NCBI GenBank assembly: GCA_043771315.1
Contig: JAYVHJ010000474.1
Location: 1 to 28,937, forward strand
Length of the DNA stretch: 28,937 nt
Origin: Raineyaceae bacterium
Lineage (GTDB): Bacteria > Bacteroidota > Bacteroidia > Cytophagales > Thermonemataceae
Direction: 5' to 3'
Shown here: in pieces, positions 1 to 18,998 of the stretch
How positions within the stretch are numbered: the stretch's first letter is position 1
Layout: every line of letters begins with the position of its first letter
Notes under the pieces: generated by a model
The model's database searches: none
Told to the model about the DNA's origin: nothing
What the model saw: the letters and a program-made list of their open reading frames with translations, nothing else
Made by a program: the position numbers and the translations under genes

Positions 1-249
1 GTAGCACTTACCGCTTTACCTGCTCTTACTGCAACAATGATGTCGCCTATGATGTTTGTCACAACTGTAGGAAAGCCCTTAATGTGGGTATCAGCTGTAC
101 TTATAGCAACACTTTCTATTACTATTATTATTTCTAGTATTGTAGCTTTTGTATTTATTTGGAATACAAAATACTCGGCTGCCTGCTGGTCTTTGGTTGT
201 CCCTTTGGCACAAGTGTTACTTATTGCGCTTATTTTTGTTATTATGTAA
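1..249 (+). CDS. C-terminal fragment of an integral membrane protein (5' end outside the window)
   Basis: Frame 1 is open from nt 1 to a TAA at 247-249. The translation VALTALPALTATMMSPMM...VPLAQVLLIALIFVIM is strongly hydrophobic and TM-like. No family recognised. Confidence 0.35.
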   Translation, partial: VALTALPALTATMMSPMMFVTTVGKPLMWVSAVLIATLSITIIISSIVAFVFIWNTKYSAACWSLVVPLAQVLLIALIFVIM

Positions 250-276: not shown

Positions 277-314
277 TAAAAAGGTTCAAAATCAAAATTT
301 TGAACCTTTTTTAT
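277..314. terminator. Rho-independent terminator hairpin (duplicated copy), A-tract/T-tract on either side
   Basis: AAGGTTCAAAAT / ATTTTGAACCTT perfect 12-bp stem with a 4-nt loop, followed by TTTTT. Confidence 0.45.
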
Positions 315-417
315 TTGTTATTTTACTTATTTCAACCAATTTTCTACTTCCTTTTTTGTAGAATTTTTGACATCATTGAGTTTTAGTTTTTTCTCATACC
401 ACAAACTTCATTAAATA
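278..417. repeat. Direct repeat copy 1: duplicated 3' end of lysS (frameshifted, non-coding) plus its terminator hairpin
   Basis: 278-417 is ~90% identical to 793-936. Both contain the hairpin AAAAAGGTTCAAAAT-loop-ATTTTGAACCTTTTTT and the last ~30 codons of lysS. Copy 1 carries a 1-nt deletion in an A-run that gives a premature stop. Confidence 0.7.
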
Positions 418-497
418 TTTGCATTTGTTAGTAAATGTATTTACTTTGCAACATCATTTAAAATTACTAAATACATTTTTACTAATCAATTTATTCT

Positions 498-788
498 ATG
501 GCTATTTTGAAAATAGTTTTGGCAGCTGTGCTAGGTAGTGCAGTTTTAGGTGCAATCTCTGGGCGCATATATTCTGCTGTTATTCCAGACGGCGCACACG
601 GACTAATGCCCAATTGGATGCTTTTTGGGGGGTTAGGGGCAGTACTAGGACTTGTCATTAGTCTTATTTGTTCCTTTGTATTTAGGGGCAGTTTGGATGC
701 AAATTTTATTAAAGCAGTAGGTATTGCAGCAGGAGGGAGCGAAATTTTGATGATAGCTTTGCTTTTGTTTATGTCCACTCGTAAATAA
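498..788 (+). CDS. Small hydrophobic membrane protein (96 aa), hypothetical
   Basis: ATG-initiated ORF with 3 predicted TM-like hydrophobic stretches (AILKIVLAAVLGSAVLGAI, WMLFGGLGAVLGLVISLICSFVF, LMIALLLF). Locally higher GC (~45-48%) than its surroundings. Lies between two direct repeats. The overlapping minus-strand ORF 491..799 is Pro/Ser-rich and judged spurious. Confidence 0.45.
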   Translation: MAILKIVLAAVLGSAVLGAISGRIYSAVIPDGAHGLMPNWMLFGGLGAVLGLVISLICSFVFRGSLDANFIKAVGIAAGGSEILMIALLLFMSTRK

Positions 789-792
789 AAAA

Positions 793-936
793 TCAACAAA
801 AAGGTTCAAAATCTTATGATTTTGAACCTTTTTTGTTAGTGATTTTGCTTATTTCAACCAATTTTCTACTTCTTCTTTTGTAGGATTTTTGACATCATTG
901 AGTTTTAGTTTTTTTCTCATACCACAAACTTCATTA
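793..936. repeat. Direct repeat copy 2: authentic lysS 3' end plus terminator
   Basis: Partner of 278-417. Here the lysS reading frame is intact. Confidence 0.7.
797..835 (-). terminator. lysS intrinsic terminator (bidirectional hairpin)
   Basis: AAGGTTCAAAAT-CTTATG-ATTTTGAACCTT hairpin 14 nt after the lysS stop codon, with a T-run on the minus strand. Confidence 0.55.
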
Positions 937-2594
937 AATAATTTGTTTGCTTCTGATTTTTTAAGTGCCTCAATTGTGTAAAGATTAAGTTTTTGCAAAA
1001 TTTGTATCAATTCCTCACGTACTCCAACCGCCAAATAATCCTCTTTTTCAGCTACCAAAGGCTTATTTTCAGGTTTCATTTGTGGAAAAAATAACACTTC
1101 TTGAATAGAATTTTGGTTAGTCATTATCATAGTCAGGCGGTCAATACCAATGCCAATACCAGCTGTAGGAGGCATTCCGTATTCCAAAGCACGCAAAAAA
1201 TCCTCGTCCATTGCCATTGCTTCTTCATCTCCACGTGCTGCTAAACTTAGTTGCTCCTCAAAACGCTCACGTTGGTCTATTGGGTCGTTTAGCTCTGAAT
1301 AAGCGTTACAAATTTCTTTTCCATTACAAATTCCTTCAAAACGCTCCACTAAGCCCTCTTTTGAACGGTGTTTTTTGGTAAGTGGCGACATCTCAACAGG
1401 ATAATCAGTAATAAAAGTAGGTTGAATGAGCAAATGTTCTACTTTTTCACCAAAAATCTCATCAATAAGTTTAGCTTTTCCCATTGTTTCATCTGTACTA
1501 ATATGCATAGATTCAGCGGTTTGACGCATCTCTTGTTCATTCATATTAGAAATATCAACGCCTGTATATTCTTTGATAGCTTCAAACATTGTAAAGCGTT
1601 TCCAAGGGCGTTGAAAGTCAATAATATTCTCTCCAACCTGTACTTTTGTTGTTCCGTGCAACGTAATAGCAATTTTTTCAATAACTTCTTCAGTCATTTC
1701 CATCATCCAATTATAATCTTTGTAGGCAACATAAAGCTCCACTTGCGTAAATTCAGGGTTATGAAAACGGCTCATTCCTTCATTTCTAAAATCTTTTGCA
1801 AACTCAAAAACACCATCATAACCGCCTACAATCAATCTTTTTAGGTATAATTCATTGGCAATACGCAAATACAAAGGCATATCAAGCGTGTTGTGGTGCG
1901 TTTTGAATGGGCGTGCAGTTGCGCCACCGTGAATGGGTTGCAAAATTGGTGTTTCAACCTCCAAATAGCCTTTATCACCTAAAAAATGACGTATCACATT
2001 GACAAGTTTGGCACGTTTAATAAAAACCTCTCTTACGTGAGGATTTACAATCATATCTACATAACGCTGTCTATAACGCTGTTCTGGGTCTGTGAAGGCA
2101 TCATACGTTTTTTTATTTCCAGCTTCATCAGTTACTTCACGCACAATAGGAAGTGGGTGAAGTGCTTTGGAAAGTAAAGTAAAATTTGTAACGTGAATAG
2201 AAATTTCACCTACTTGTGTAGTGAAAACGTAGCCTTTGAGTCCGACAATATCTCCAATATCTAGCAGTTTTTTGAAAACGGTATTATAGTTGGTTTTATC
2301 TTCTGTAGGACATATTTCGTCACGGTTTACGTAGATTTGTATGCGCCCAGTTGCATCTTGAATTTCTGCAAACGAGGCACTTCCCATAATACGAAAACTC
2401 ATCAAACGCCCTGCAATAGAGATGTTTTTGTAGTTTTCCTTGCTTTGAGGGTTATTTTCTTGATAATTTTTTAGAATGTCATCAGCAGTTGCGTTTACTT
2501 CAAATCCATCTGCTGGATAGGGATTTATGCCCATTTTGATAAGTTCTGCACGTTTTTGACGGCGCATTACCTCTTGTTCGCTAAGTATTTGCAT
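849..2594 (-). CDS. lysS: Lysine--tRNA ligase (class II LysRS) with a Bacteroidetes-type C-terminal extension
   Basis: 581-aa ORF. OB-fold anticodon-binding N-domain, then class II motifs (FRNEG, ...[11 protein letters not shown]...) and a ~70-aa C-terminal extension. Its start overlaps the rimM stop by 1 nt. Confidence 0.95.
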
Positions 2595-3279: not shown

Positions 3280-3325
3280 AAAATAATATGTTAGCTGTTA
3301 TAATTGGTTGTTGTTTATTGTATTT

Positions 3326-3374
3326 AATTCACAATTCACAATTCACAATTAAAAATTCACAATTAAAAATTATT
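3326..3374. repeat. Heptanucleotide tandem repeat array (AATTCAC)n, 7 units
   Basis: AATTCAC AATTCAC AATTCAC AATTAAA AATTCAC AATTAAA AATTATT. It overlaps the rpsP stop codon. Confidence 0.75.
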
Positions 3375-3912
3375 CTTCTGTTTTTGTAACTTCTTCTGTT
3401 GCAGGTGCATCAGCAATTACTTCTGCCACAGGCTCTGCAACTGGCTCAACGACAGGGGCATTTTTCTTAGCAATAGCAGCGGCACGGTCAGTAGATTTCT
3501 TAGTTTCTGCATCAAGACGAGCTTTAGCATCTTTTACTTTATTATCAGCCAAAGTATCTATTTTTCCAGAGATTTTAGCTTCTTTATTTTGTTTCCAAGC
3601 AGCAAATTTAGCATCAGCAACTTCTTGCGTGATAGCTCCTTTTCCTACACCAATTTGAAGATGTTTTCTGATAAGTACACCTCTATATGAAAGCATTGCT
3701 TTTACTGTGTCAGTAGGTTGTGCACCTTTCATTACCCAGCTAAACGCTTTTTCTTCATCAATATTGATGCTTGCAGGGTTGGTGTTTGGGTTGTAAGTGC
3801 CTATTTTCTCTATGAACCTACCATCACGTGGAGAGCGAGAGTCTGCAATGATAACATCATACATTGCTAATTTTTTACGTCCACGACGTGCTAATCTGAT
3901 TTTTACGGGCAT
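3370..3912 (-). CDS. rpsP: 30S ribosomal protein S16 with an Ala/Glu/Val-rich C-terminal extension
   Basis: N-terminus MPVKIRLARRGRKKLAMYDVIIADSRSPRDGRFIEKIGTYNP is canonical bS16. A ~90-aa low-complexity tail (VVEPVAEPVAEV) is typical of Bacteroidetes. Confidence 0.9.
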   Translation of the reverse strand: MPVKIRLARRGRKKLAMYDVIIADSRSPRDGRFIEKIGTYNPNTNPASINIDEEKAFSWVMKGAQPTDTVKAMLSYRGVLIRKHLQIGVGKGAITQEVADAKFAAWKQNKEAKISGKIDTLADNKVKDAKARLDAETKKSTDRAAAIAKKNAPVVEPVAEPVAEVIADAPATEEVTKTEE

Positions 3913-4130: not shown

Positions 4131-4196
4131 TATATAGAAAATACATTGTTTGACGAAGTGCGTTGTGGGTGTCGCTAACGCTAAAACAACCAACAA
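4131..4196. repeat. Left inverted repeat (~65 bp) bounding a 2.2-kb three-gene cassette
   Basis: 4131-4196 is ~90% identical to the reverse complement of 6267-6332. The shared core is GTGCGTTGTGGGTGTCGCTAAYGCTAAAACA. Confidence 0.65.
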
Positions 4197-4835: not shown

Positions 4836-5050
4836 CTATATATGCGACTTTGTTGGTATGCTTTTTCCTCTGTTGTCGTCTGTTTTAGCATAACGTACAC
4901 CAACAACGGCAGAAACCTTGAAAATCTGTGATATATATAATTTACTTTTAGAATTATGTAACATTTTTCTAGAATTATGTAACACCCTATTGTGGAATTT
5001 GTTGCAATTTTGCATTGTGGAAATACTTTCACAATCTAAAATCTATCATA

Positions 5051-5839
5051 ATGAACATAAAAAATCTACTACTAATAATTTTTGCAACTGCTTCTATTAT
5101 TTTTTCAGGCTGTAAAAAAGACAATAATGCAGTAACGCCTGTAGTACCACCCACAAATGTAATAATCACTCAAACAGTAGTACAACCTGCAATAAACCTA
5201 CGAACTGCAGGTAATTTTGTGGTTTTGGCTGGTTCGCTAATATCAAATATTCCTGCCTCTGCAATCACAGGAAATATTGGGTTAAGCCCGTCAGCGGGTA
5301 GTATGATTACAGGATTTGGAGGCACTGAAATAACTGGAACAGTTTATACAGTAGATGCGACTGGTCCTGCGGGTTCTGTACCTGATGCAGTAGGGCTTAC
5401 TGCTGCAAAAGGTGATTTAACAACAGCCTACAACGAAGCTGCAGGTCGTACTTCAACTGACATTGTACTTCTTGCAGGAAACATTGGGGGACTTACACTC
5501 AGTCCTGGACTTTACAAATCATCAGGATCACTTGAAATTTCTTCTGGAGACCTTACATTTGATGCAAAAGGAAATGCAAATGCAACTTTTATCATTCAAA
5601 TTGCATCTTCTTTGAATACTACTTCAGGTCGTAAAATCTTTTTAGCTGGTGGGGCATTGGCATCAAATATCTTTTGGCAAGTAGGAACTTCTGCTACGCT
5701 TGGAACTACCTCTGTTTTCAAAGGTAACATAATGGCTGACCAATCAATTTCAGTAAATACGGGTGCAGCAGTTGAAGGGCGTTTGCTTGCACGTATTGCA
5801 GCGGTTACTTTAAGTAGTAATACAGTTGTCAGACCATAA
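5051..5839 (+). CDS. DUF3494 / ice-binding-like family lipoprotein
   Basis: Lipoprotein signal MNIKNLLLIIFATASIIFSG|C. The mature part matches the DUF3494 beta-helix family: TAGNFVVLAGS...ITGNIGLSPS..., GLTLSPGLYKSSGSLEISSGDLTFDAKGNANATFIIQI, IFWQVGTSATLGTTSVFKGNIMADQSISVNTGAAVEGRLLAR. The ORF track starts at 5015; the ATG at 5051 is preferred. Confidence 0.7.
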   Translation: MNIKNLLLIIFATASIIFSGCKKDNNAVTPVVPPTNVIITQTVVQPAINLRTAGNFVVLAGSLISNIPASAITGNIGLSPSAGSMITGFGGTEITGTVYTVDATGPAGSVPDAVGLTAAKGDLTTAYNEAAGRTSTDIVLLAGNIGGLTLSPGLYKSSGSLEISSGDLTFDAKGNANATFIIQIASSLNTTSGRKIFLAGGALASNIFWQVGTSATLGTTSVFKGNIMADQSISVNTGAAVEGRLLARIAAVTLSSNTVVRP

Positions 5840-6266: not shown

Positions 6267-6332
6267 GGTTGGTGTTTTAGCATTAGCGACACCCACAACG
6301 CACTACATCAAACAATGTATAATTTCTAATTC
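6267..6332. repeat. Right inverted repeat (~65 bp) bounding the cassette; overlaps the ABC transporter stop codon
   Basis: Reverse complement of 4131-4196 with 5-6 mismatches and 1 indel. Confidence 0.65.
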
Positions 6333-11344: not shown

Positions 11345-11540
11345 TTCTTGTCTGAACTCAATATACATCATTCCAAGAGGGTAAAATCTTTTGGAATGAT
11401 TGCGTTTTTAAGATAGTAAGTATTTGATTATCATTTTTTTAATTAAATATTTTGTCAAATAAGTAGGTTTTAGTAATTAGTTGATGTTTTGATAGTATTA
11501 AAAATGATATGTAAAACCTTACTATTAACGTTTTGTATTC

Positions 11541-11568
11541 ATTCACAATTCACAATTCACAATTCACA
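11541..11568. repeat. (ATTCACA)4 heptanucleotide tandem repeat 36 nt upstream of the RNase E/G start codon
   Basis: ATTCACA ATTCACA ATTCACA ATTCACA ATTACCT. Confidence 0.75.
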
Positions 11569-11603
11569 ATTACCTACATACAATCAACTAAAAAAATACG
11601 AAC

Positions 11604-13163
11604 TTGAATAGTGAATTAGTTATTAATTCTACGCCAGAAGGGGTGCGTATTGCCCTTTTGAAAGACAAAAAAATTGTAGAATACCATATTGAGGAAACTG
11701 GAAGTAATTTTGGAGTAGGAGATATTTATTTAGGAACTATTCGTAAGATAATGCCTGGGCTAAATGCCGCTTTTATTGATATAGGGTACGAAAAAGATGC
11801 TTTTTTACACTATCTTGATTTGGGCGCAAATGTGCCCTCATTGCTAAAATATACCAAAGACACTATTGCCAAAAGGCAACAAACACACAAACTAGATACT
11901 TTTACGCTTGAGCCACCTATTGAAAAAATAGGTAAAGTAACGCAAGTGCTTAACCGTAATACCCCAATTCTTGTTCAGATAACAAAAGAACCCATTTCTA
12001 CAAAAGGACCTCGTTTGTCTTGCGAAATCTCTATTGCAGGGCGTTATATGGTGCTTGTGCCATTTGCTAGTTCTGTTAATATTTCTAAGAAAATAGCCTC
12101 AAAGGAAGAAAGAAATAGGCTTTTAAGGCTGATTAGTTCTATCAAACCTAAGAATTTTGGCGTGATTGTGCGCACTGCTGCAGAAGGCGTTGAGGTAGCA
12201 GAACTTGATACAGATTTGCGTGATTTGGTGGAAAAATGGGAAAGTGGTTATAATAAATTGCGTGATGCAATGCCTCGTGACAAGATTTTGGGCGAAATAG
12301 GACGTGTAAGTTCTATTTTGCGTGATATGTTGAATGATAATTTTGATAGCATTTTGGTAGATGATAAAGCTATTTTTGAAGAAATAAAGGCTTTTGTAAA
12401 AATCATCTCACCAAAACACGAAAAAATAGTCAAATTTCATAATTCAAAAGTGCCTATTTTTGAACTTCTGAACATAGAAAAACAACTTAAAAGTTTGTTT
12501 GGAAAAACAGTTAGTTTGCAAAAAGGCGGTTATTTGGTCATAGAGCATACAGAAGCATTACACGTAATTGACGTGAATAGTGGCAATAAATCAACAGCGC
12601 AAGAAAGTCAGGAAGAAACAGCACTTGCCGTAAACCTAGAAGCAGCAGCAGAAGTCGCTAGACAGCTTCGTATGCGTGATATGGGTGGTATTGTGGTAGT
12701 GGATTTTATTGATATGAAACGTGCTGAATACAAATTACAAGTATTTGAAAAAATGCGCCAATCAATGGCAGAAGACCGTGCCAAACACACTATTTTGCCT
12801 ATTACAAAGTTTGGACTGATGCAAATCACACGCCAAAGGGTGCGCCCAGAAATGAACATCAAAACCCTAGAAGATTGTCCTACCTGTGCAGGAACAGGCA
12901 AAATAGGTGCTAGTATCTTGATTTCTGATAACATTGATTTAATGTTGGCACACGTTTTGGAAAAACAAAATGAAGCGGGAATTACGCTCACTTTGCACCC
13001 ATTTTTAGTAGCTTATTACACAAAAGGCTTTCCTTCAAGACGTGCAAAATGGTTTTTCAAATACAAAAAATGGATAAAAATTATTGCGGATAACTCCTTG
13101 TCTATCAATGATTTCAAATTCAAAAACAAAGAAGGTATTGAATTAGAGTTAGATAAATTCTAA
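11604..13163 (+). CDS. rng: Ribonuclease E/G family endoribonuclease (RNase G-like)
   Basis: TTG start. 519 aa. S1 domain near the N-terminus (VGDIYLGTIRKIMPGLNAAFIDIG), DNase I-like catalytic region (HVIDVNSG...D...MGGIVVVDFIDM), Zn-link CPTCAGTG. Confidence 0.85.
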   Translation: MNSELVINSTPEGVRIALLKDKKIVEYHIEETGSNFGVGDIYLGTIRKIMPGLNAAFIDIGYEKDAFLHYLDLGANVPSLLKYTKDTIAKRQQTHKLDTFTLEPPIEKIGKVTQVLNRNTPILVQITKEPISTKGPRLSCEISIAGRYMVLVPFASSVNISKKIASKEERNRLLRLISSIKPKNFGVIVRTAAEGVEVAELDTDLRDLVEKWESGYNKLRDAMPRDKILGEIGRVSSILRDMLNDNFDSILVDDKAIFEEIKAFVKIISPKHEKIVKFHNSKVPIFELLNIEKQLKSLFGKTVSLQKGGYLVIEHTEALHVIDVNSGNKSTAQESQEETALAVNLEAAAEVARQLRMRDMGGIVVVDFIDMKRAEYKLQVFEKMRQSMAEDRAKHTILPITKFGLMQITRQRVRPEMNIKTLEDCPTCAGTGKIGASILISDNIDLMLAHVLEKQNEAGITLTLHPFLVAYYTKGFPSRRAKWFFKYKKWIKIIADNSLSINDFKFKNKEGIELELDKF

Positions 13164-13203
13164 AAATCCCTGAAAAAAATTACAAGTATTCCTCAAAATA
13201 CGC

Positions 13204-13241
13204 AAAAGTGTTATTCTGATTATCAGAATAGCACTTTTTTT
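13204..13241. repeat. 38-bp palindromic terminator-like element, copy 1 (A4-GTGTTATTCTGAT-TATCAGAATAGCAC-T7)
   Basis: Nearly identical (1 mismatch) to 15570-15608. Perfect 13-bp stem with an A-tract upstream and a T-tract downstream, so a bidirectional terminator. Confidence 0.65.
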
Positions 13242-13337
13242 ATTAAAGTTAATTATTTTGTTACTTTGCTTGTAAAATGAAAAAAAGTATATATTTTTAC
13301 GCCAAGTTACTAGTTATCCCATTAATCAATTTTTTGA

Positions 13338-15557
13338 ATGCCTTATCCTCATCTGCTTACTGCTACAAGAGAGCCTCTTGATATTTTTTTAAATGTTATT
13401 TCAGGGATTATTCCAACAGATTTATCTGGTTTTGTTTTCATCAATTCTGGTGCTGGTAGCATCAATTCTAATGGTTTGCCTTTTGCTAAAAATATGGCTG
13501 ATGGTACTCCCAACCAAGAATATGGCTCACCTGTCATCAATGGAGATGGCTATATATTCCGTTTTGACCTTACGCAAGAAGGCAAAATACACCTAAAAAC
13601 GGATATTTTTCGTACCCCTTGCTATTATGCTGACGTGGCTACGAGTGCTATCACTAATCCAAAAGATAACCGTTTTTGGCACTTGGGTTTCAAGAATTTA
13701 GGTTTGGCTCGTATTTCTTCTGAGTTGGGTACACGTAATCAATTAAATACGGCTATTACACCTTTTCGTTTAAGCAAAAATAGTAATGAATTGCGCTTAT
13801 TAGCTAATTTTGATGCTGGTCGCCCGTTTGAATTTGATCCCAAAAAACTAACGCTTATCACGCCTATTGGTCAAAATGAGTTTTGGGAAGATGGTATGCC
13901 ACCCTTTATGAAGCAACCAATTGCAATGGTACTTACAACGGCTCACCCTGTTTTTGATGCAGAAACAAAAGAGCTATTTAGTGTAAATTTTACTAAAACC
14001 ACACGTGCATTAATGGAAGCAACCACTATTTTTGATGTTTTGCCTAAGAAAAAAACAAAAAAAATGGAGAAAGAAATATTACATAAGATTGTGCTTTGGG
14101 AAAAAGCAGAAGTAAATAAAACCCTTTACACAAATGTTACCCAGTTTTTTAAGGGCTTACGGAATAAAACGAGAATAAAACAAAGTTTTTTTAAGAAATC
14201 TCGTAGAAAAATTAGTGCTTTATTCACTAAGATAGTTACAAAAAAAATTTCTAATCAAAATAATATACAACTATTACTTTGGGAAGGAGAAACTGTACTA
14301 AAAAAATGGCAAGTTGTTGATAAGCAAGGAAAAAATATTGAAATAGCTCATAATATGCATCAAATAGGTCTTACGAAAGATTATTTATTGTTGGCGGACA
14401 CCAATTTTAAGTTCTCTTTTGATATTATGGTGAATAATCCATTTCCTAAAAATTATAGACTAGGGGCTTTTTTTAGAAAATTAGTAAGTGGTGTGATGAA
14501 TGATTATTCAAGTATTTATATTGTTAATAGAAAAGATTTATTAGACAACAAAACCTCTGTAGTAGCTCAAAAAACCACATTGCCTGTTGAAACAGTACAT
14601 TTTTCTGCTAATTATGAAAATCCTGATGGTATTATTACAGTGCATACAGCACATAACTGTTCTGCTTGCCCCGCTGATTGGTTGCGACCTTATGATAAAT
14701 TGAAAATAGGGCAAAAATTAGTGGATAAACAGCGTTTGGGACTTATTGCAGTAGGTGAGATGGACATAGGAAAAATAGGAAAATGTGTCATAGATGCTAA
14801 AAACGGCAAATTATTAGAAGATAAAACAACATTTTTGCACCTCACAGGAGAAGACAAAGAAGGTAATCTTACAGGCGCACATACGTGGGGTGTTGGGTTA
14901 TATACGTATAGATATATGCTTTCACCTGATGAAAATGTAGCAGAAATTACGCATATTTTTTGGCAAAGTTATGGGCTTTCCAATCAAATGCTAACTAATT
15001 TTATTTATGATTTGTACAAAAATCCTAAAAGAAATAGGGTTTTTCAGGCAGAAGAAGTACTTGCTTTTACTGAAAAAGAAGCACCTTATATCTTAAAATG
15101 TGTGGCTACTGATACAATGACAGTAGATGATTATTTTTTGTTCCCAAAAGACTATTTTATGTGGTCTTTGCAGTTTGTACCACGCAAATACACACAAAAT
15201 GCCCGTAATGAGGCAATTCCTTTGCAAAAAGATGGTTATATTTTTTGTACGGTGGTTACAACAGAAAATATAATTATTAATAATAAAGAAATAAAACAAC
15301 ACAATTCTGAAATATGGCTTTTTGATGCTAATAATCTTGCGCAAGGTGCTATTTGCAAACTTGATCACCCAGCAATGCAATTTGCCTTTACTATTCATAG
15401 CGTTTGGGTGAAAGAGGCAAATGAGGTTTCTACGCCAGATTATATTATTCCTATGAAACCTGATTATGATTTTATGATAGAAAGAATGGGGGGAAAGAAC
15501 ACGAGAAAAAAAACACAGATACTATTTGATGAATATGTTTATCCTCATTTTAAATAA
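13338..15557 (+). CDS. Carotenoid cleavage oxygenase / RPE65-family protein with a ~100-aa Lys-rich insertion
   Basis: 739 aa. CCO landmarks: NGDGYIFRFDL, NTAITPFRL...LRLLANFDAGRPFEFDPKKLTL, TTAHPVFD, MHQIGLTKDYLLLAD, VHFSANYENPDG, FVPRK...KDGYIFCTVV. Residues ~235-335 (KKKTKKMEKEIL...KKWQ) form an extra low-complexity insert. Confidence 0.65.
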   Translation: MPYPHLLTATREPLDIFLNVISGIIPTDLSGFVFINSGAGSINSNGLPFAKNMADGTPNQEYGSPVINGDGYIFRFDLTQEGKIHLKTDIFRTPCYYADVATSAITNPKDNRFWHLGFKNLGLARISSELGTRNQLNTAITPFRLSKNSNELRLLANFDAGRPFEFDPKKLTLITPIGQNEFWEDGMPPFMKQPIAMVLTTAHPVFDAETKELFSVNFTKTTRALMEATTIFDVLPKKKTKKMEKEILHKIVLWEKAEVNKTLYTNVTQFFKGLRNKTRIKQSFFKKSRRKISALFTKIVTKKISNQNNIQLLLWEGETVLKKWQVVDKQGKNIEIAHNMHQIGLTKDYLLLADTNFKFSFDIMVNNPFPKNYRLGAFFRKLVSGVMNDYSSIYIVNRKDLLDNKTSVVAQKTTLPVETVHFSANYENPDGIITVHTAHNCSACPADWLRPYDKLKIGQKLVDKQRLGLIAVGEMDIGKIGKCVIDAKNGKLLEDKTTFLHLTGEDKEGNLTGAHTWGVGLYTYRYMLSPDENVAEITHIFWQSYGLSNQMLTNFIYDLYKNPKRNRVFQAEEVLAFTEKEAPYILKCVATDTMTVDDYFLFPKDYFMWSLQFVPRKYTQNARNEAIPLQKDGYIFCTVVTTENIIINNKEIKQHNSEIWLFDANNLAQGAICKLDHPAMQFAFTIHSVWVKEANEVSTPDYIIPMKPDYDFMIERMGGKNTRKKTQILFDEYVYPHFK

Positions 15558-15569
15558 ATTTCCATAATA

Positions 15570-15608
15570 AAAAAGTGTTATTCTGATTATCAGAATAACA
15601 CTTTTTTT
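15570..15608. repeat. 38-bp palindromic terminator-like element, copy 2 (shared terminator of the convergent CCO and hutG genes)
   Basis: AAAAAGTGTTATTCTGATTATCAGAATAACACTTTTTTT. Confidence 0.65.
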
Positions 15609-15630
15609 ATTAACATCAGTTAAGAGTATT

Positions 15631-16635
15631 TTATGAAACCACTTTGAAAATCAAATTTGCAGCAAGTTTTGCAGTTTGCTCATCTCTATCAAATTGCGGA
15701 TTAAGTTCTGCAATATCAAATGCAATGATTTTGCGAGTATTTGCAAGGTAATCTAAAAGCGCAAAAATCACCTCTGGATAGACACCTTCTCCATTTGTAG
15801 CACTTACAGCAGGTGCAAAGGCTGCCGCAAAAACGTCCATACAAACCGTAATATAAAGTGCATCTTTGTCGGCTACAAAATATTCTAATTTTTCTAATAA
15901 TTCTGATAAATAGTGCATATTTACCCTGTTTGAGAGGATATATTCTGCGCCAATTTCTTTTGCATTATTGAAAACTTTGGTTGTATTACTTTGTTTTTGG
16001 ATACCAATAGCAAGATAATGAAAGGGCATAGCATTTTTTTCACAAAGTTCCGAAATTTGCAAAAAAGGCGTACCAGAATTGCCTTTTCCTATTCTGCTAA
16101 CGCTTCCACTAGTTGCATTGTCTTTGTAACTACGAGTATCCAAATGTGCATCAAAATTGATAATACCCACATTTAGTTGATGTTTTCTTGCGAAATGATG
16201 AATACCCAAATAATGCCCGTAGGCTACCTCGTGTCCGCCACCCAAAACAATGCTTTTGTAGCCTTTGGAAAGAATATAATCAATTTTCTCGCCTAAATCC
16301 ACTTGTGCATCTTCCAAAAAATCACCTAAACACACCACATCTCCAATATCAATAATTTTACTTTTATCAGAAAGATGATAGGGAAGGTTAGAAAGTGCTT
16401 TTCTAATGTGTTTTGGAGCTTCACTTGCACCAATACGCCCCAAGTTACGTTTTACGCCCTCATCACAACAAAAGCCTGTAATAACGTAGCTAACAGCATC
16501 ATTTGCAGACACAGGCGTAAAATCTGGGCTATTGATAGGGAGTGTTTGTATGGCTTGATGCCAACGGAAACCCTCACGACCATCTAGCGTGTCTATGCGT
16601 CCTTGCCAAAGTTTTTTGTTGGGTATTCTATACAT
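15631..16635 (-). CDS. hutG: Formimidoylglutamase (arginase/ureohydrolase superfamily)
   Basis: 334 aa. HutG-type N-terminus (W.GR.D......R.HQ), metal ligands GGGHEVAYGH, INFDAHLD, SVCMDVFAAAFAP. No other hut genes nearby, so the in vivo substrate is uncertain. Confidence 0.75.
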   Translation of the reverse strand: MYRIPNKKLWQGRIDTLDGREGFRWHQAIQTLPINSPDFTPVSANDAVSYVITGFCCDEGVKRNLGRIGASEAPKHIRKALSNLPYHLSDKSKIIDIGDVVCLGDFLEDAQVDLGEKIDYILSKGYKSIVLGGGHEVAYGHYLGIHHFARKHQLNVGIINFDAHLDTRSYKDNATSGSVSRIGKGNSGTPFLQISELCEKNAMPFHYLAIGIQKQSNTTKVFNNAKEIGAEYILSNRVNMHYLSELLEKLEYFVADKDALYITVCMDVFAAAFAPAVSATNGEGVYPEVIFALLDYLANTRKIIAFDIAELNPQFDRDEQTAKLAANLIFKVVS

Positions 16636-16640
16636 TTTTT

Positions 16641-16668
16641 AATTGTGAATTGTAAATTGTGAATGAAT
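16641..16668. repeat. Heptanucleotide repeat (AATTGTG, the reverse complement of CACAATT) x4, immediately 5' of the hutG start on the coding strand
   Basis: AATTGTG AATTGTA AATTGTG AATGAAT. Confidence 0.7.
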
Positions 16669-16684
16669 ACAGTTTTAGCATATT

Positions 16685-17500: not shown

Positions 17501-17560
17501 TGTTTTTTAATTATGAATTTTTAATTATAAACTAAATATAAAGTATCCTTAATCAAAATT

Positions 17561-18373: not shown

Positions 18374-18560
18374 TTTTTTGTATTTTTGTGTTTTGATACT
18401 GAAAAATAGTTGTAACTTAAATATAAAAGGTTGTTAATCAACCAATTATATAAATACTATTCGTAATTATTTTTAAACGTAACAAAAAAAACATCAAAAA
18501 AAAAGAAAAAAGTGAATTTTGATAAATTAGATTGTTGTAATTATTACTACGCTGTATTTA

Positions 18561-18595
18561 ATTCACAATTCACAATTTACAATTCACAATTATTA
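18561..18595. repeat. (AATTCAC)n heptanucleotide repeat, 5 units, ending 10 nt before the rsfS start codon
   Basis: AATTCAC AATTCAC AATTTAC AATTCAC AATTATT. Confidence 0.75.
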
Positions 18596-18605
18596 ATAAA
18601 GTCAA

Positions 18606-18998
18606 ATGAAAAAAAGCAGAAAAGAAAAAGAGCCTACAAGCCTTTCAGCAGAACTTTTGAGCCAAGTAGTGGCAAAAGGAATGCAAGATAAAAAAGCACA
18701 AAACATTGTTATTATGGATATGCGCCATGTAAAACAAGCTATGGCGGATTTTTTTGTGATTTGTACGGGTGGTTCTGATACACAATTAGATGCTATTGCA
18801 GACTCAATAGAGAAAGAAGTAGTGGAAATGGGCAACGAAAAGCCTTGGCACAGAGAAGGAATGCAGAACCGTGAGTGGATTTTGCTGGATTATGTCAATG
18901 TCATTGCACACGTTTTTAAGAAGACAAAAAGAGATTTTTTTGCACTAGAAGAACTTTGGGCAGATGCGAAAATCACGCAAGTTGCCTCTGATAATTAG
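18606..18998 (+). CDS. rsfS: Ribosomal silencing factor RsfS (Iojap family)
   Basis: 130 aa. DFFVICTGGSDTQLDAIADSIEKE...WILLDYVNVIAHVF is the canonical Iojap/RsfS fold. Confidence 0.85.
   Translation: MKKSRKEKEPTSLSAELLSQVVAKGMQDKKAQNIVIMDMRHVKQAMADFFVICTGGSDTQLDAIADSIEKEVVEMGNEKPWHREGMQNREWILLDYVNVIAHVFKKTKRDFFALEELWADAKITQVASDN

Follow-up and report, generated by a model that had tools for sequence, protein, structure and literature searches.

Direct repeats of the lysS 3' end around a small membrane-protein gene: a probable tandem segmental duplication in an uncultured Cytophagales lineage

Near the start of a 28,937-nt contig from a Raineyaceae bacterium (JAYVHJ010000474.1; this whole stretch is referred to as the window), a small gene stands between two direct repeats, each of which contains the end of the neighboring lysS gene together with a hairpin. 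How did a gene come to lie between two copies of its neighbor's end? A first-pass annotation, made from the sequence alone, proposed that a mobile process had inserted a foreign, GC-richer cargo gene and had left a target-site duplication of ~140 bp around it. The coordinates of the features considered here are collected in Table 1.

Table 1. Features of the lysS-end locus in the window
Feature	Position	Strand	Remarks
ORF94, orphan 93-aa hydrophobic ORF, 3' 82 codons	1-249	plus	open from base 1; stop codon at 247-249
Predicted terminator hairpin, copy A (T_A)	278-311	none	perfect 15-bp stem between A and T runs, as in a bidirectional form
lysS 3'-end remnant	312-417	minus	3'UTR 312-326, stop codon 327-329, last 30 codons 330-417
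Novel duplication join	413-427	none	between 417 and 418, +/- a few nt; lysS tail abuts the start of P
P2, duplicated upstream/leader region of G2 (~85 nt)	418-497	plus	83-92% identical to L001 4916-5003, upstream of G1
G2, 96-aa small membrane-protein gene	498-788	plus	downstream, faster-diverging copy; 82% amino acid and 88% nucleotide identity to G1
Predicted terminator hairpin, copy B (T_B)	798-833	none	common to the convergent genes G2 and lysS
lysS (lysine--tRNA ligase, 581 aa)	849-2594	minus	intact; NCBIfam lysine--tRNA ligase, E 3e-211

Two copies of the lysS end in the window

The direct repeats, first placed at 278-417 and 793-936 with ~90% identity, were confirmed by alignment at 278-420 and 798-943, where 133 of 146 alignment columns are identical (91%); ungapped blocks within the pair include one of 96 nt (93% identity) and one of 34 nt (97%). 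Each repeat had been described as the last ~30 codons of lysS plus a terminator hairpin, and both parts were recovered by hairpin folding and by alignment with lysS. One hairpin stands at the start of each repeat, with a perfect stem of 15-16 bp and A/T runs on either side; the stems of T_A and T_B are identical, and the difference between them is confined to the loop. T_A folded at -15 kcal/mol (z -4.4/-5.5) and T_B at ~-22 kcal/mol (z -6.8), so that the two together span -15 to -22.6 kcal/mol on either strand (z -4.4 to -6.8), and none of the shuffled sequences folded as well on either strand. A scan for intrinsic (rho-independent) terminators, i.e., a stable stem-loop with a U-run, flagged both hairpins, and they are predicted to act as bidirectional terminators. 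Rfam and tRNA scans of the window gave no match. The same pattern of a gene bracketed by duplicated terminators had also been noted at the CCO locus; there, we did find a hairpin of ~46 nt on both sides of an RPE65-family gene, but no duplicated coding fragment.

The upstream repeat contains a copy of the lysS end at 327-417, the source of which is the stop codon and last 30 codons of the intact gene at 849-940. A T-run of 6 nt in the remnant (387-392) corresponds to 7 nt in the downstream copy (909-915), and this 1-nt deletion breaks the frame, as first reported, with the translation of the C-terminus split over two reading frames. Neither a start codon nor a promoter was found upstream of the remnant, which is a dead, promoterless 3' fragment. 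The genes neighboring this locus are housekeeping genes (OmpA/PD40, rhodanese, rimM and rpsP), and none of a mobile element was found near it.

Between the repeats, positions 418-797 hold only P2 and G2, without a Pfam, NCBIfam or PHROG match in this segment and without inverted repeats at its ends. The claim of a 96-aa ORF with three transmembrane segments agreed with a structural model of G2 (pLDDT 87.5), which consists of three long helices at residues 2-28, 39-61 and 70-94; a comparison of this model with PDB structures gave no match at E <= 0.001. P2 is presumed to carry the promoter of G2. A scan of P2 with the sigma-70 consensus, from which Bacteroidota promoters differ, found no site.

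The locus beyond the window and in related lineages

The window begins within copy 1 of a larger structure, and only the hairpin and the lysS tail are therefore seen twice inside it. L001, a 21-kb scaffold of the same genome from another sample, matches 6,771 nt of the window at 100% identity and reaches 5.5 kb further upstream. Just outside the window it carries G1 (P0002), a 100-aa paralog of G2, and the full order of the locus is a 234-aa gene, P1, G1, ~365 nt with ORF94, T_A, the lysS remnant, P2, G2, T_B and lysS. Thus, P2 and G2, which make up the DNA between the repeats, are themselves duplicated, with a P1-to-P2 spacing of 893 bp in a gap-free reconstruction; the spacing of the hairpin and lysS-tail repeats is 523 bp. 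The duplicated elements occur in the same order and orientation, with identities of 83-92% for P, 88% for G and 91% for the hairpin and tail.

The reconstruction joins the contig L093 to the window from base 21. L093 and the contig L094 resolve a gap in L001 inside ORF94, where this scaffold has 10 Ns and a stretch of 100 nt (L001 5424-5523) that differs from the other contigs. Breaks at window positions 1-20 occur in three assemblies. L093 stops exactly at base 20, and L094, a k141 contig of 828 nt that comes from a third sample, spans that point. The first 11 codons of ORF94 are present on L093, L001 and L094, the last of which crosses the join uninterrupted. ORF94 occupies the ~365 nt of extra DNA between G1 and T_A. 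It has no homolog among 5.8 billion proteins, where the only match was the ORF itself as called on L001 (70 aa), and it was not found in the loci of relatives (L002-L005 and L006). We also asked whether ORF94 could be a third copy of G that had diverged, and rejected this (hhalign probability 1.7%).

Only five other close homologs of the 96-aa protein were found among the 5.8 billion proteins. Their contigs represent three related lineages, with a lysS dS of ~0.23 to the window genome; P0004 is carried on 7 contigs, 4 of which were examined (L002-L005). In L002-L005 and in L006, the locus consists of a 239-aa gene, P, G, 7-8 nt, T and lysS, all in single copy, with neither the duplication nor the lysS remnant. 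L007 has a 230-aa gene, P and G once; beyond G, its contig runs for ~105 nt into unrelated sequence and ends without reaching a terminator or lysS. P is conserved upstream of the single small gene in L002, L006 and L007. The first-pass annotation had predicted that relatives with a single terminator would lack the small ORF; they carry it at the same position, which makes the small gene a resident of the lysS site in this clade. The duplication appears to be specific to the window's lineage, as judged from three sampled lineages, in whose short-read assemblies identical tandem copies would be collapsed.

At greater distance, a lysS-based scan of GTDB genomes led to Cytophagales, where the nearest lysS (80%) belongs to a Raineya sp. 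MAG, and the small gene was absent from all 80 lysS loci fetched, including that of this MAG. A further contig, L029, is 98% identical and stops inside lysS. Protein and DNA scans of JGI metagenomes gave no further relatives.

Among the orthologs dN/dS is 0.22-0.26, and the small gene is therefore a real gene under purifying selection, in agreement with the original view that it did not arise de novo. When 1.84 billion representatives were searched with a profile, 32 relatives were recovered at E <= 1e-3; apart from two of 61-62 aa and one of 138 aa, these measure 87-102 aa. Members of the family have three hydrophobic segments, and helices 1 and 2 are linked by a conserved loop, P[DE]H[AP]HQIxP[TN]W, whose His-x-His element hints at binding of a metal or cofactor. 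No Pfam or NCBIfam family covers the 32 relatives consistently, and searches of Pfam, NCBIfam and PHROGs with G2, G1 and ORF94 gave nothing usable. In the genomic context of four distant members, no neighbor was conserved except an upstream alpha/beta-hydrolase gene in three of the four. The duplicated gene is thus a member of an unannotated family of membrane proteins of ~100 aa with a conserved His-x-His-Gln loop. G2 has the length (~90-105 aa), the three hydrophobic helices and the significant profile match of this family. Its loop reads PDGAHGLMPNW, while that of G1 and the close orthologs reads P/S/A-D/E-HAHQI(I/L)P(T/N)W; G2 is a family member by descent that has lost the His-x-His-Gln motif.

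The first-pass annotation had set the composition of G2 apart from that of its surroundings (~33% GC). The GC content of ~45-48% first attributed to it was found only in 150-nt peaks (47%). Overall, G2 has 41.6% GC, which is the highest value among the window ORFs and lies above the 35-38% of G1 and the orthologs. At the third codon position, however, G2 (30.9%) falls within the range of the 22 window ORFs (17.4-33.3%) and of G1 and the orthologs (26.5-31.7%), and its composition there is native. The excess GC is located at codon positions 1 and 2. Synonymous-site composition, a compositional mark of horizontal acquisition, is therefore not deviant in G2.

The join between the copies and the competing explanations

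The lysS tail of the upstream copy ends in AAATA (413-417), and P starts from 418 with TTTGCATTTG. The junction (window 409-427) reads CATTAAATATTTGCATTTG. One parental sequence, upstream of P in L001, L002 and L006, is GTGAAATATTATTTGCATTTG, and the other, within lysS at window 931-950, is CATTAAATAATTTGTTTGC. The 5-nt microhomologies AAATA and ATTTG are present in both parents at the breakpoints, as in a tandem duplication made at microhomology by illegitimate recombination or template switching. The observed junction matches neither simple crossover exactly, being 1-3 nt off; the 9% divergence accumulated since the event keeps the exact join from being fixed. Junctions of tandem amplifications in E. 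coli have microhomologies of 4-15 bp (PMC1428787). There is a single novel tail-to-P junction, which the window shares with L001 and L094, each assembled from a different sample, and the copy on L094 carries an extra private SNP.

We consider it likely that a lineage-specific tandem segmental duplication of ~523 bp at a microhomology, followed by divergence and by the gain of ~365 nt of orphan-ORF DNA in copy 1, produced this locus. The ancestral order would have been the 234/239-aa gene, the ~85-nt P, the 100-aa G, the bidirectional T and convergent lysS. Illegitimate recombination or a template switch at AAATA/ATTTG may then have joined lysS, 30 codons before its stop, to the start of P, so that the unit P-G-T-lysS tail, ~523 bp in length, would have been duplicated head to tail. 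Since the right-hand breakpoint sits inside lysS, the downstream unit would remain continuous with an intact lysS, and the upstream unit would end in a promoterless 3' fragment, in which the frameshift was presumably acquired afterwards. The ~365 nt with the orphan ORF probably entered copy 1 later, between G1 and T_A; as they are absent from copy 2 and from the relatives, at least two events are required. Subsequently, the 5' end of G2 may have lost 12 nt by slippage, G2 would have taken up mainly non-synonymous AT-to-GC changes, among them those that removed His and Gln from the conserved loop, and recombination between the two copies would have continued in the population. The unduplicated relatives at the same locus agree with this reading, and the dS of G1 and G2 (0.19) is at or below that of lysS between the window genome and its relatives (0.23). 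The earlier proposal of an origin by recombination is thus upheld; that of a mobile process is not, as no transposase, integrase or terminal inverted repeat is present.

The history of the two copies is more complex than a single duplication. At six sites in window 687-796, G1 and G2 have derived states in common, and they share a 3'UTR insertion, while at six other sites (window 479 and 611-650) G2 groups with L007, and the segregation of these site patterns along G2 is perfect (p = 0.002). By these site patterns, G1 and G2 are apparently not simple sisters over their whole length. The mosaic sites imply that either an older duplication with partial homogenization or recombination with another allele is also needed, and the perfect segregation indicates that some gene conversion or allelic recombination has occurred. 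Exchange is also suggested by L094, which contains, in order, the 3' end of ORF94, T_A, the remnant, the junction, P2, two thirds of G2, the last third of G1, the sequence downstream of G1 and the start of ORF94. The switch from G2 (5') to G1 (3') lies inside a 27-nt identical stretch (window 651-677), and the longest identical run between G1 and G2 is 43 nt, compared with the k of 141. Such a hybrid would be expected from unequal crossing-over, with a three-copy array or an excised circle as the product, or if unit 1 had converted unit 2. As L094 is a clean G2/G1 hybrid, there appears to be recombination between the copies.

The mosaic sites also raise the question of whether G2 could be an imported allele. 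In homology-facilitated illegitimate recombination, P-G-T-lysS DNA from a related strain would be anchored in lysS, and its other end would be joined illegitimately in the lysS tail of the recipient. This single step would give the same architecture and would account for the mosaicism of G2, including its resemblance to L007 at 611-650. Unit 2 is, moreover, compact like the locus of the relatives, without ORF94, and T_B and its lysS tail are identical or nearly so to those of L006 and L002: T_B has the same hairpin sequence as L006, and window 848-980 is identical to L002. In lysS 890-1190, we counted 5 differences from L002 where ~15 were expected (p = 0.003). Yet L002, toward which lysS similarity is raised, is the worst match to G2, and divergence toward L006 is uniform, without a clear donor tract in lysS. 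No plausible donor was found among the sampled lineages, given that the identity of G2 is only 80-85% to L002, L006 and L007 and 88% to G1; the most distinctive changes in G2 are unique to it; and the 3' ends of G1 and G2 share derived states and the 3'UTR insertion. Import is therefore an unlikely origin for G2.

It would be more surprising still if the structure were an assembly artefact, in which two strain variants of a single-copy locus had been wrongly concatenated. The data come entirely from metagenome assemblies, contig breaks recur at window 1-20, there is an N gap in L001, and the copies are 88-93% identical, a divergence typical of that between strains. However, the tail-to-P junction has only ~5 nt in common with either parent, far below any k-mer size, and the 43-nt maximum for identical G1/G2 sequence is likewise well short of k. 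The recurrence of the junction in three assemblies from three samples, one of them with a private SNP, and the unbroken course of the window, in which ORF94, T_A, the junction, G2, T_B and lysS follow one another, argue against this explanation, and we regard it as very improbable.

Finally, insertion of a GC-richer cargo gene by a mobile or site-specific element, which had been suggested by direct repeats around the ORF of highest GC in the window, is scarcely credible, given that the "cargo" has a paralog in the resident gene next to it, that its upstream region is duplicated as well, that unduplicated relatives have the gene at the same site, that its GC3 is native and its excess GC arose from G2-specific substitutions, that no transposase, integrase, terminal inverted repeat, tRNA or phage family was matched, and that target-site duplications of known transposable elements measure from a few bp to ~14 bp, compared with 143 bp here.

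Divergence of G2 and comparison with known systems

After the probable tandem duplication, the two copies evolved unequally. G2 has 14 unique substitutions, compared with 7 in G1, and evolves about twice as fast; G1 retains the family motif. Substitutions specific to G2 are directional, with 11 AT-to-GC and 1 GC-to-AT changes, compared with 1 and 5, respectively, in G1 (Fisher p = 0.004 for the contrast between G2 and G1). By hand count from the alignment, most of the G2-specific changes affect the first or second codon position and give rise to codons for Gly, Ala and Leu, and 10 of 11 coding changes are non-synonymous (also a hand count; p ~0.2 against neutrality). At its 5' end, G2 carries a 12-nt deletion (four codons) between TTATGGC repeats. 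In the loop, the conserved DHAHQ of the family has become DGAHG through two CA-to-GG double substitutions, with loss of the conserved His and Gln. Comparisons involving G2 gave a dN/dS of 0.43-0.59, compared with 0.22-0.26 among the orthologs. The non-synonymous AT-to-GC changes and the loss of the motif suggest that the redundant copy, G2, has been under relaxed or altered selection. Altogether, these data point to G2 as a relaxed or re-purposed copy, with counts too small to tell decay from positive selection.

A bolder reading of the same locus is that it captures the birth of a gene family, in which positive selection would be giving G2 a new function, the spacer of copy 1 would have gained ORF94 as a genuinely new orphan membrane-protein gene, and the array would still be expanding and contracting. 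The Gly-rich loop, the directional AT-to-GC bias and the two CA-to-GG double substitutions are what suggest positive selection, and the L094 hybrid suggests expansion and contraction in the population. We consider this combination doubtful.

How does the locus compare with known systems? Like a transposable-element insertion, it has direct repeats around a gene-sized segment. Unlike such insertions, it has repeats of 143 bp and not 2-14 bp, lacks transposition genes and terminal inverted repeats, and encloses a segment that is native and itself duplicated, with the gene already present at what would be the "empty site" of the relatives. The case is a clear example of a general trap: what looks, near a window edge, like a long "target-site duplication" around a gene may be the inner part of a tandem duplication that extends outside the window. 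Homology-facilitated illegitimate recombination, reportedly described in natural transformation, could likewise yield one homologous junction, one microhomology junction and a duplicated anchor region, but here no donor lineage was found and the copies share derived states at their 3' ends.

Divergence after duplication is said to proceed by innovation-amplification-divergence or under relaxed selection. The present pair resembles both models in having a slow copy that keeps the motif (G1) and a copy that evolves about twice as fast, with higher dN/dS and loss of conserved residues (G2), and the resemblance is known from sequence, with numbers too small to separate selection from decay.

The closest parallel is tandem duplication and amplification at microhomologies, as described for lac and ampC in E. 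coli (PMC1428787). In both cases, a contiguous chromosomal segment is repeated head to tail, one novel junction connects the end of a unit with the start of the next, a short microhomology is present at the parental breakpoints (5 nt here and 4-15 bp in E. coli), and homologous exchange between the copies follows, as the L094 hybrid suggests here. The differences concern scale, sequence and age. Laboratory amplicons typically extend over kilobases to tens of kilobases, compared with ~0.5 kb for the unit described here, and the microhomology at the lysS end is A/T-rich and not G-rich. Instead of being transient and selected, the duplication is old and retained, with 9-12% divergence and presence in several samples. 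One of its breakpoints also cuts the 3' end of an essential gene, which is harmless, as the downstream copy is intact. The structure is a new instance of a well-known process, with little bearing beyond this genome. In this uncultured Cytophagales lineage, the tandem duplicate is small and old and has been retained, and its copies evolve asymmetrically and appear still to recombine.

Breaks and unrelated sequence beside the small membrane-protein gene

Copy 1 of the tandemly duplicated small gene, which encodes a three-helix membrane protein of ~100 aa beside lysS, appears to have gained an orphan 93-aa hydrophobic ORF (ORF94). Three independent assemblies break at a single point inside this ORF: the window (positions 1-20), a 21-kb scaffold of the same genome from another sample (L001, positions 5414-5523), and the contig covering the stretch upstream of the window (L093, at its end). 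The last base of L093 corresponds to window base 20, and the window itself begins at the same point. At the break, the L001 scaffold carries 10 N and then an unrelated 100-nt stretch, after which it rejoins the window at base 18. Because the three assemblies break at one point and L001 offers these alternative 100 nt, our results suggest that the 3' part of ORF94 has a second context, in the genome itself or in a strain co-existing with it.

In L007, a contig of a related lineage in which the small gene is single-copy, the stretch after the ortholog (3651-3755) is not the lysS terminator but unrelated sequence containing the GC-rich motifs CCCAGCGGGACGGC ... GCCCCAGCG; the contig stops at this point. 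This unrelated sequence, together with the gain of ORF94, suggests that the site just past the stop codon of the small gene is a recurrent rearrangement site.

For distant family members of the small membrane protein, 3 of 4 contexts (L088, L089 and L090) have an alpha/beta-hydrolase or esterase gene upstream of the homolog, 11 nt away in L089 and separated from it by an opposite-strand DUF4890 gene in L088. In the window's clade, the upstream gene instead encodes a 234-aa protein whose match to DUF3291 is only weak.

Identity of the lysS 3' end with that of L002

The C-terminal extension of lysS (last ~130 nt; window 848-980) is identical to that of L002, another single-copy relative. As lysS differs by 4.9% overall between the two, zero differences in this segment have a P of ~0.002; across window 890-1190, 5 differences were observed where ~15 were expected. 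This identity reflects either unusually strong nucleotide-level constraint or a recent recombination tract adjoining the duplication.

Repeats elsewhere in the window

The two hairpin copies flanking the 'CCO' gene both read AAAAGTGTTATTCTGATTATCAGAATA[G/A]CACTTTTTTTATTAA. No duplicated coding fragment was found at this locus, and the similarity of the two flanks ends with the hairpin.

A 48-nt inverted repeat, higher in GC than its surroundings, encloses a 2.1-kb segment with three ORFs. In L002, just 26 nt of this repeat are present, and the genes lying between rpsP and the ice-binding gene are not the same as in the window. The segment and its inverted repeats may form a cassette that is invertible or mobile.

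Finally, the heptamer AATTCAC occurs in runs of 3-6 units. Start codons lie directly downstream of most runs, for example those of an RNase E/G gene at 11604 and an ORF at 18606, and on the minus strand the genes with starts at 16635 and 17500 have a run just upstream. The run downstream of rpsP is kept in L002, L003 (a further single-copy contig) and L029 (a 98%-identical contig ending inside lysS). These runs may represent a leader or regulatory motif.

Repeats and associated genes, with their positions in the window
Feature	Position	Details
'CCO' gene	13338-15557	RPE65/carotenoid oxygenase family, 739 aa
Palindromic hairpin, two copies	13203-13248 and 15570-15615	Flank 'CCO' gene
Inverted repeat, 48 nt	4141-4188 and 6273-6320	94% complementary
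Ice-binding-domain protein ORF	5015-5839	Pfam Ice_binding, E 1.5e-63; one of the three ORFs between the inverted repeats
AATTCAC runs	3305-3380, 11533-11580, 16636-16671, 17504-17526, 18539-18600, 26804-26838	All intergenic
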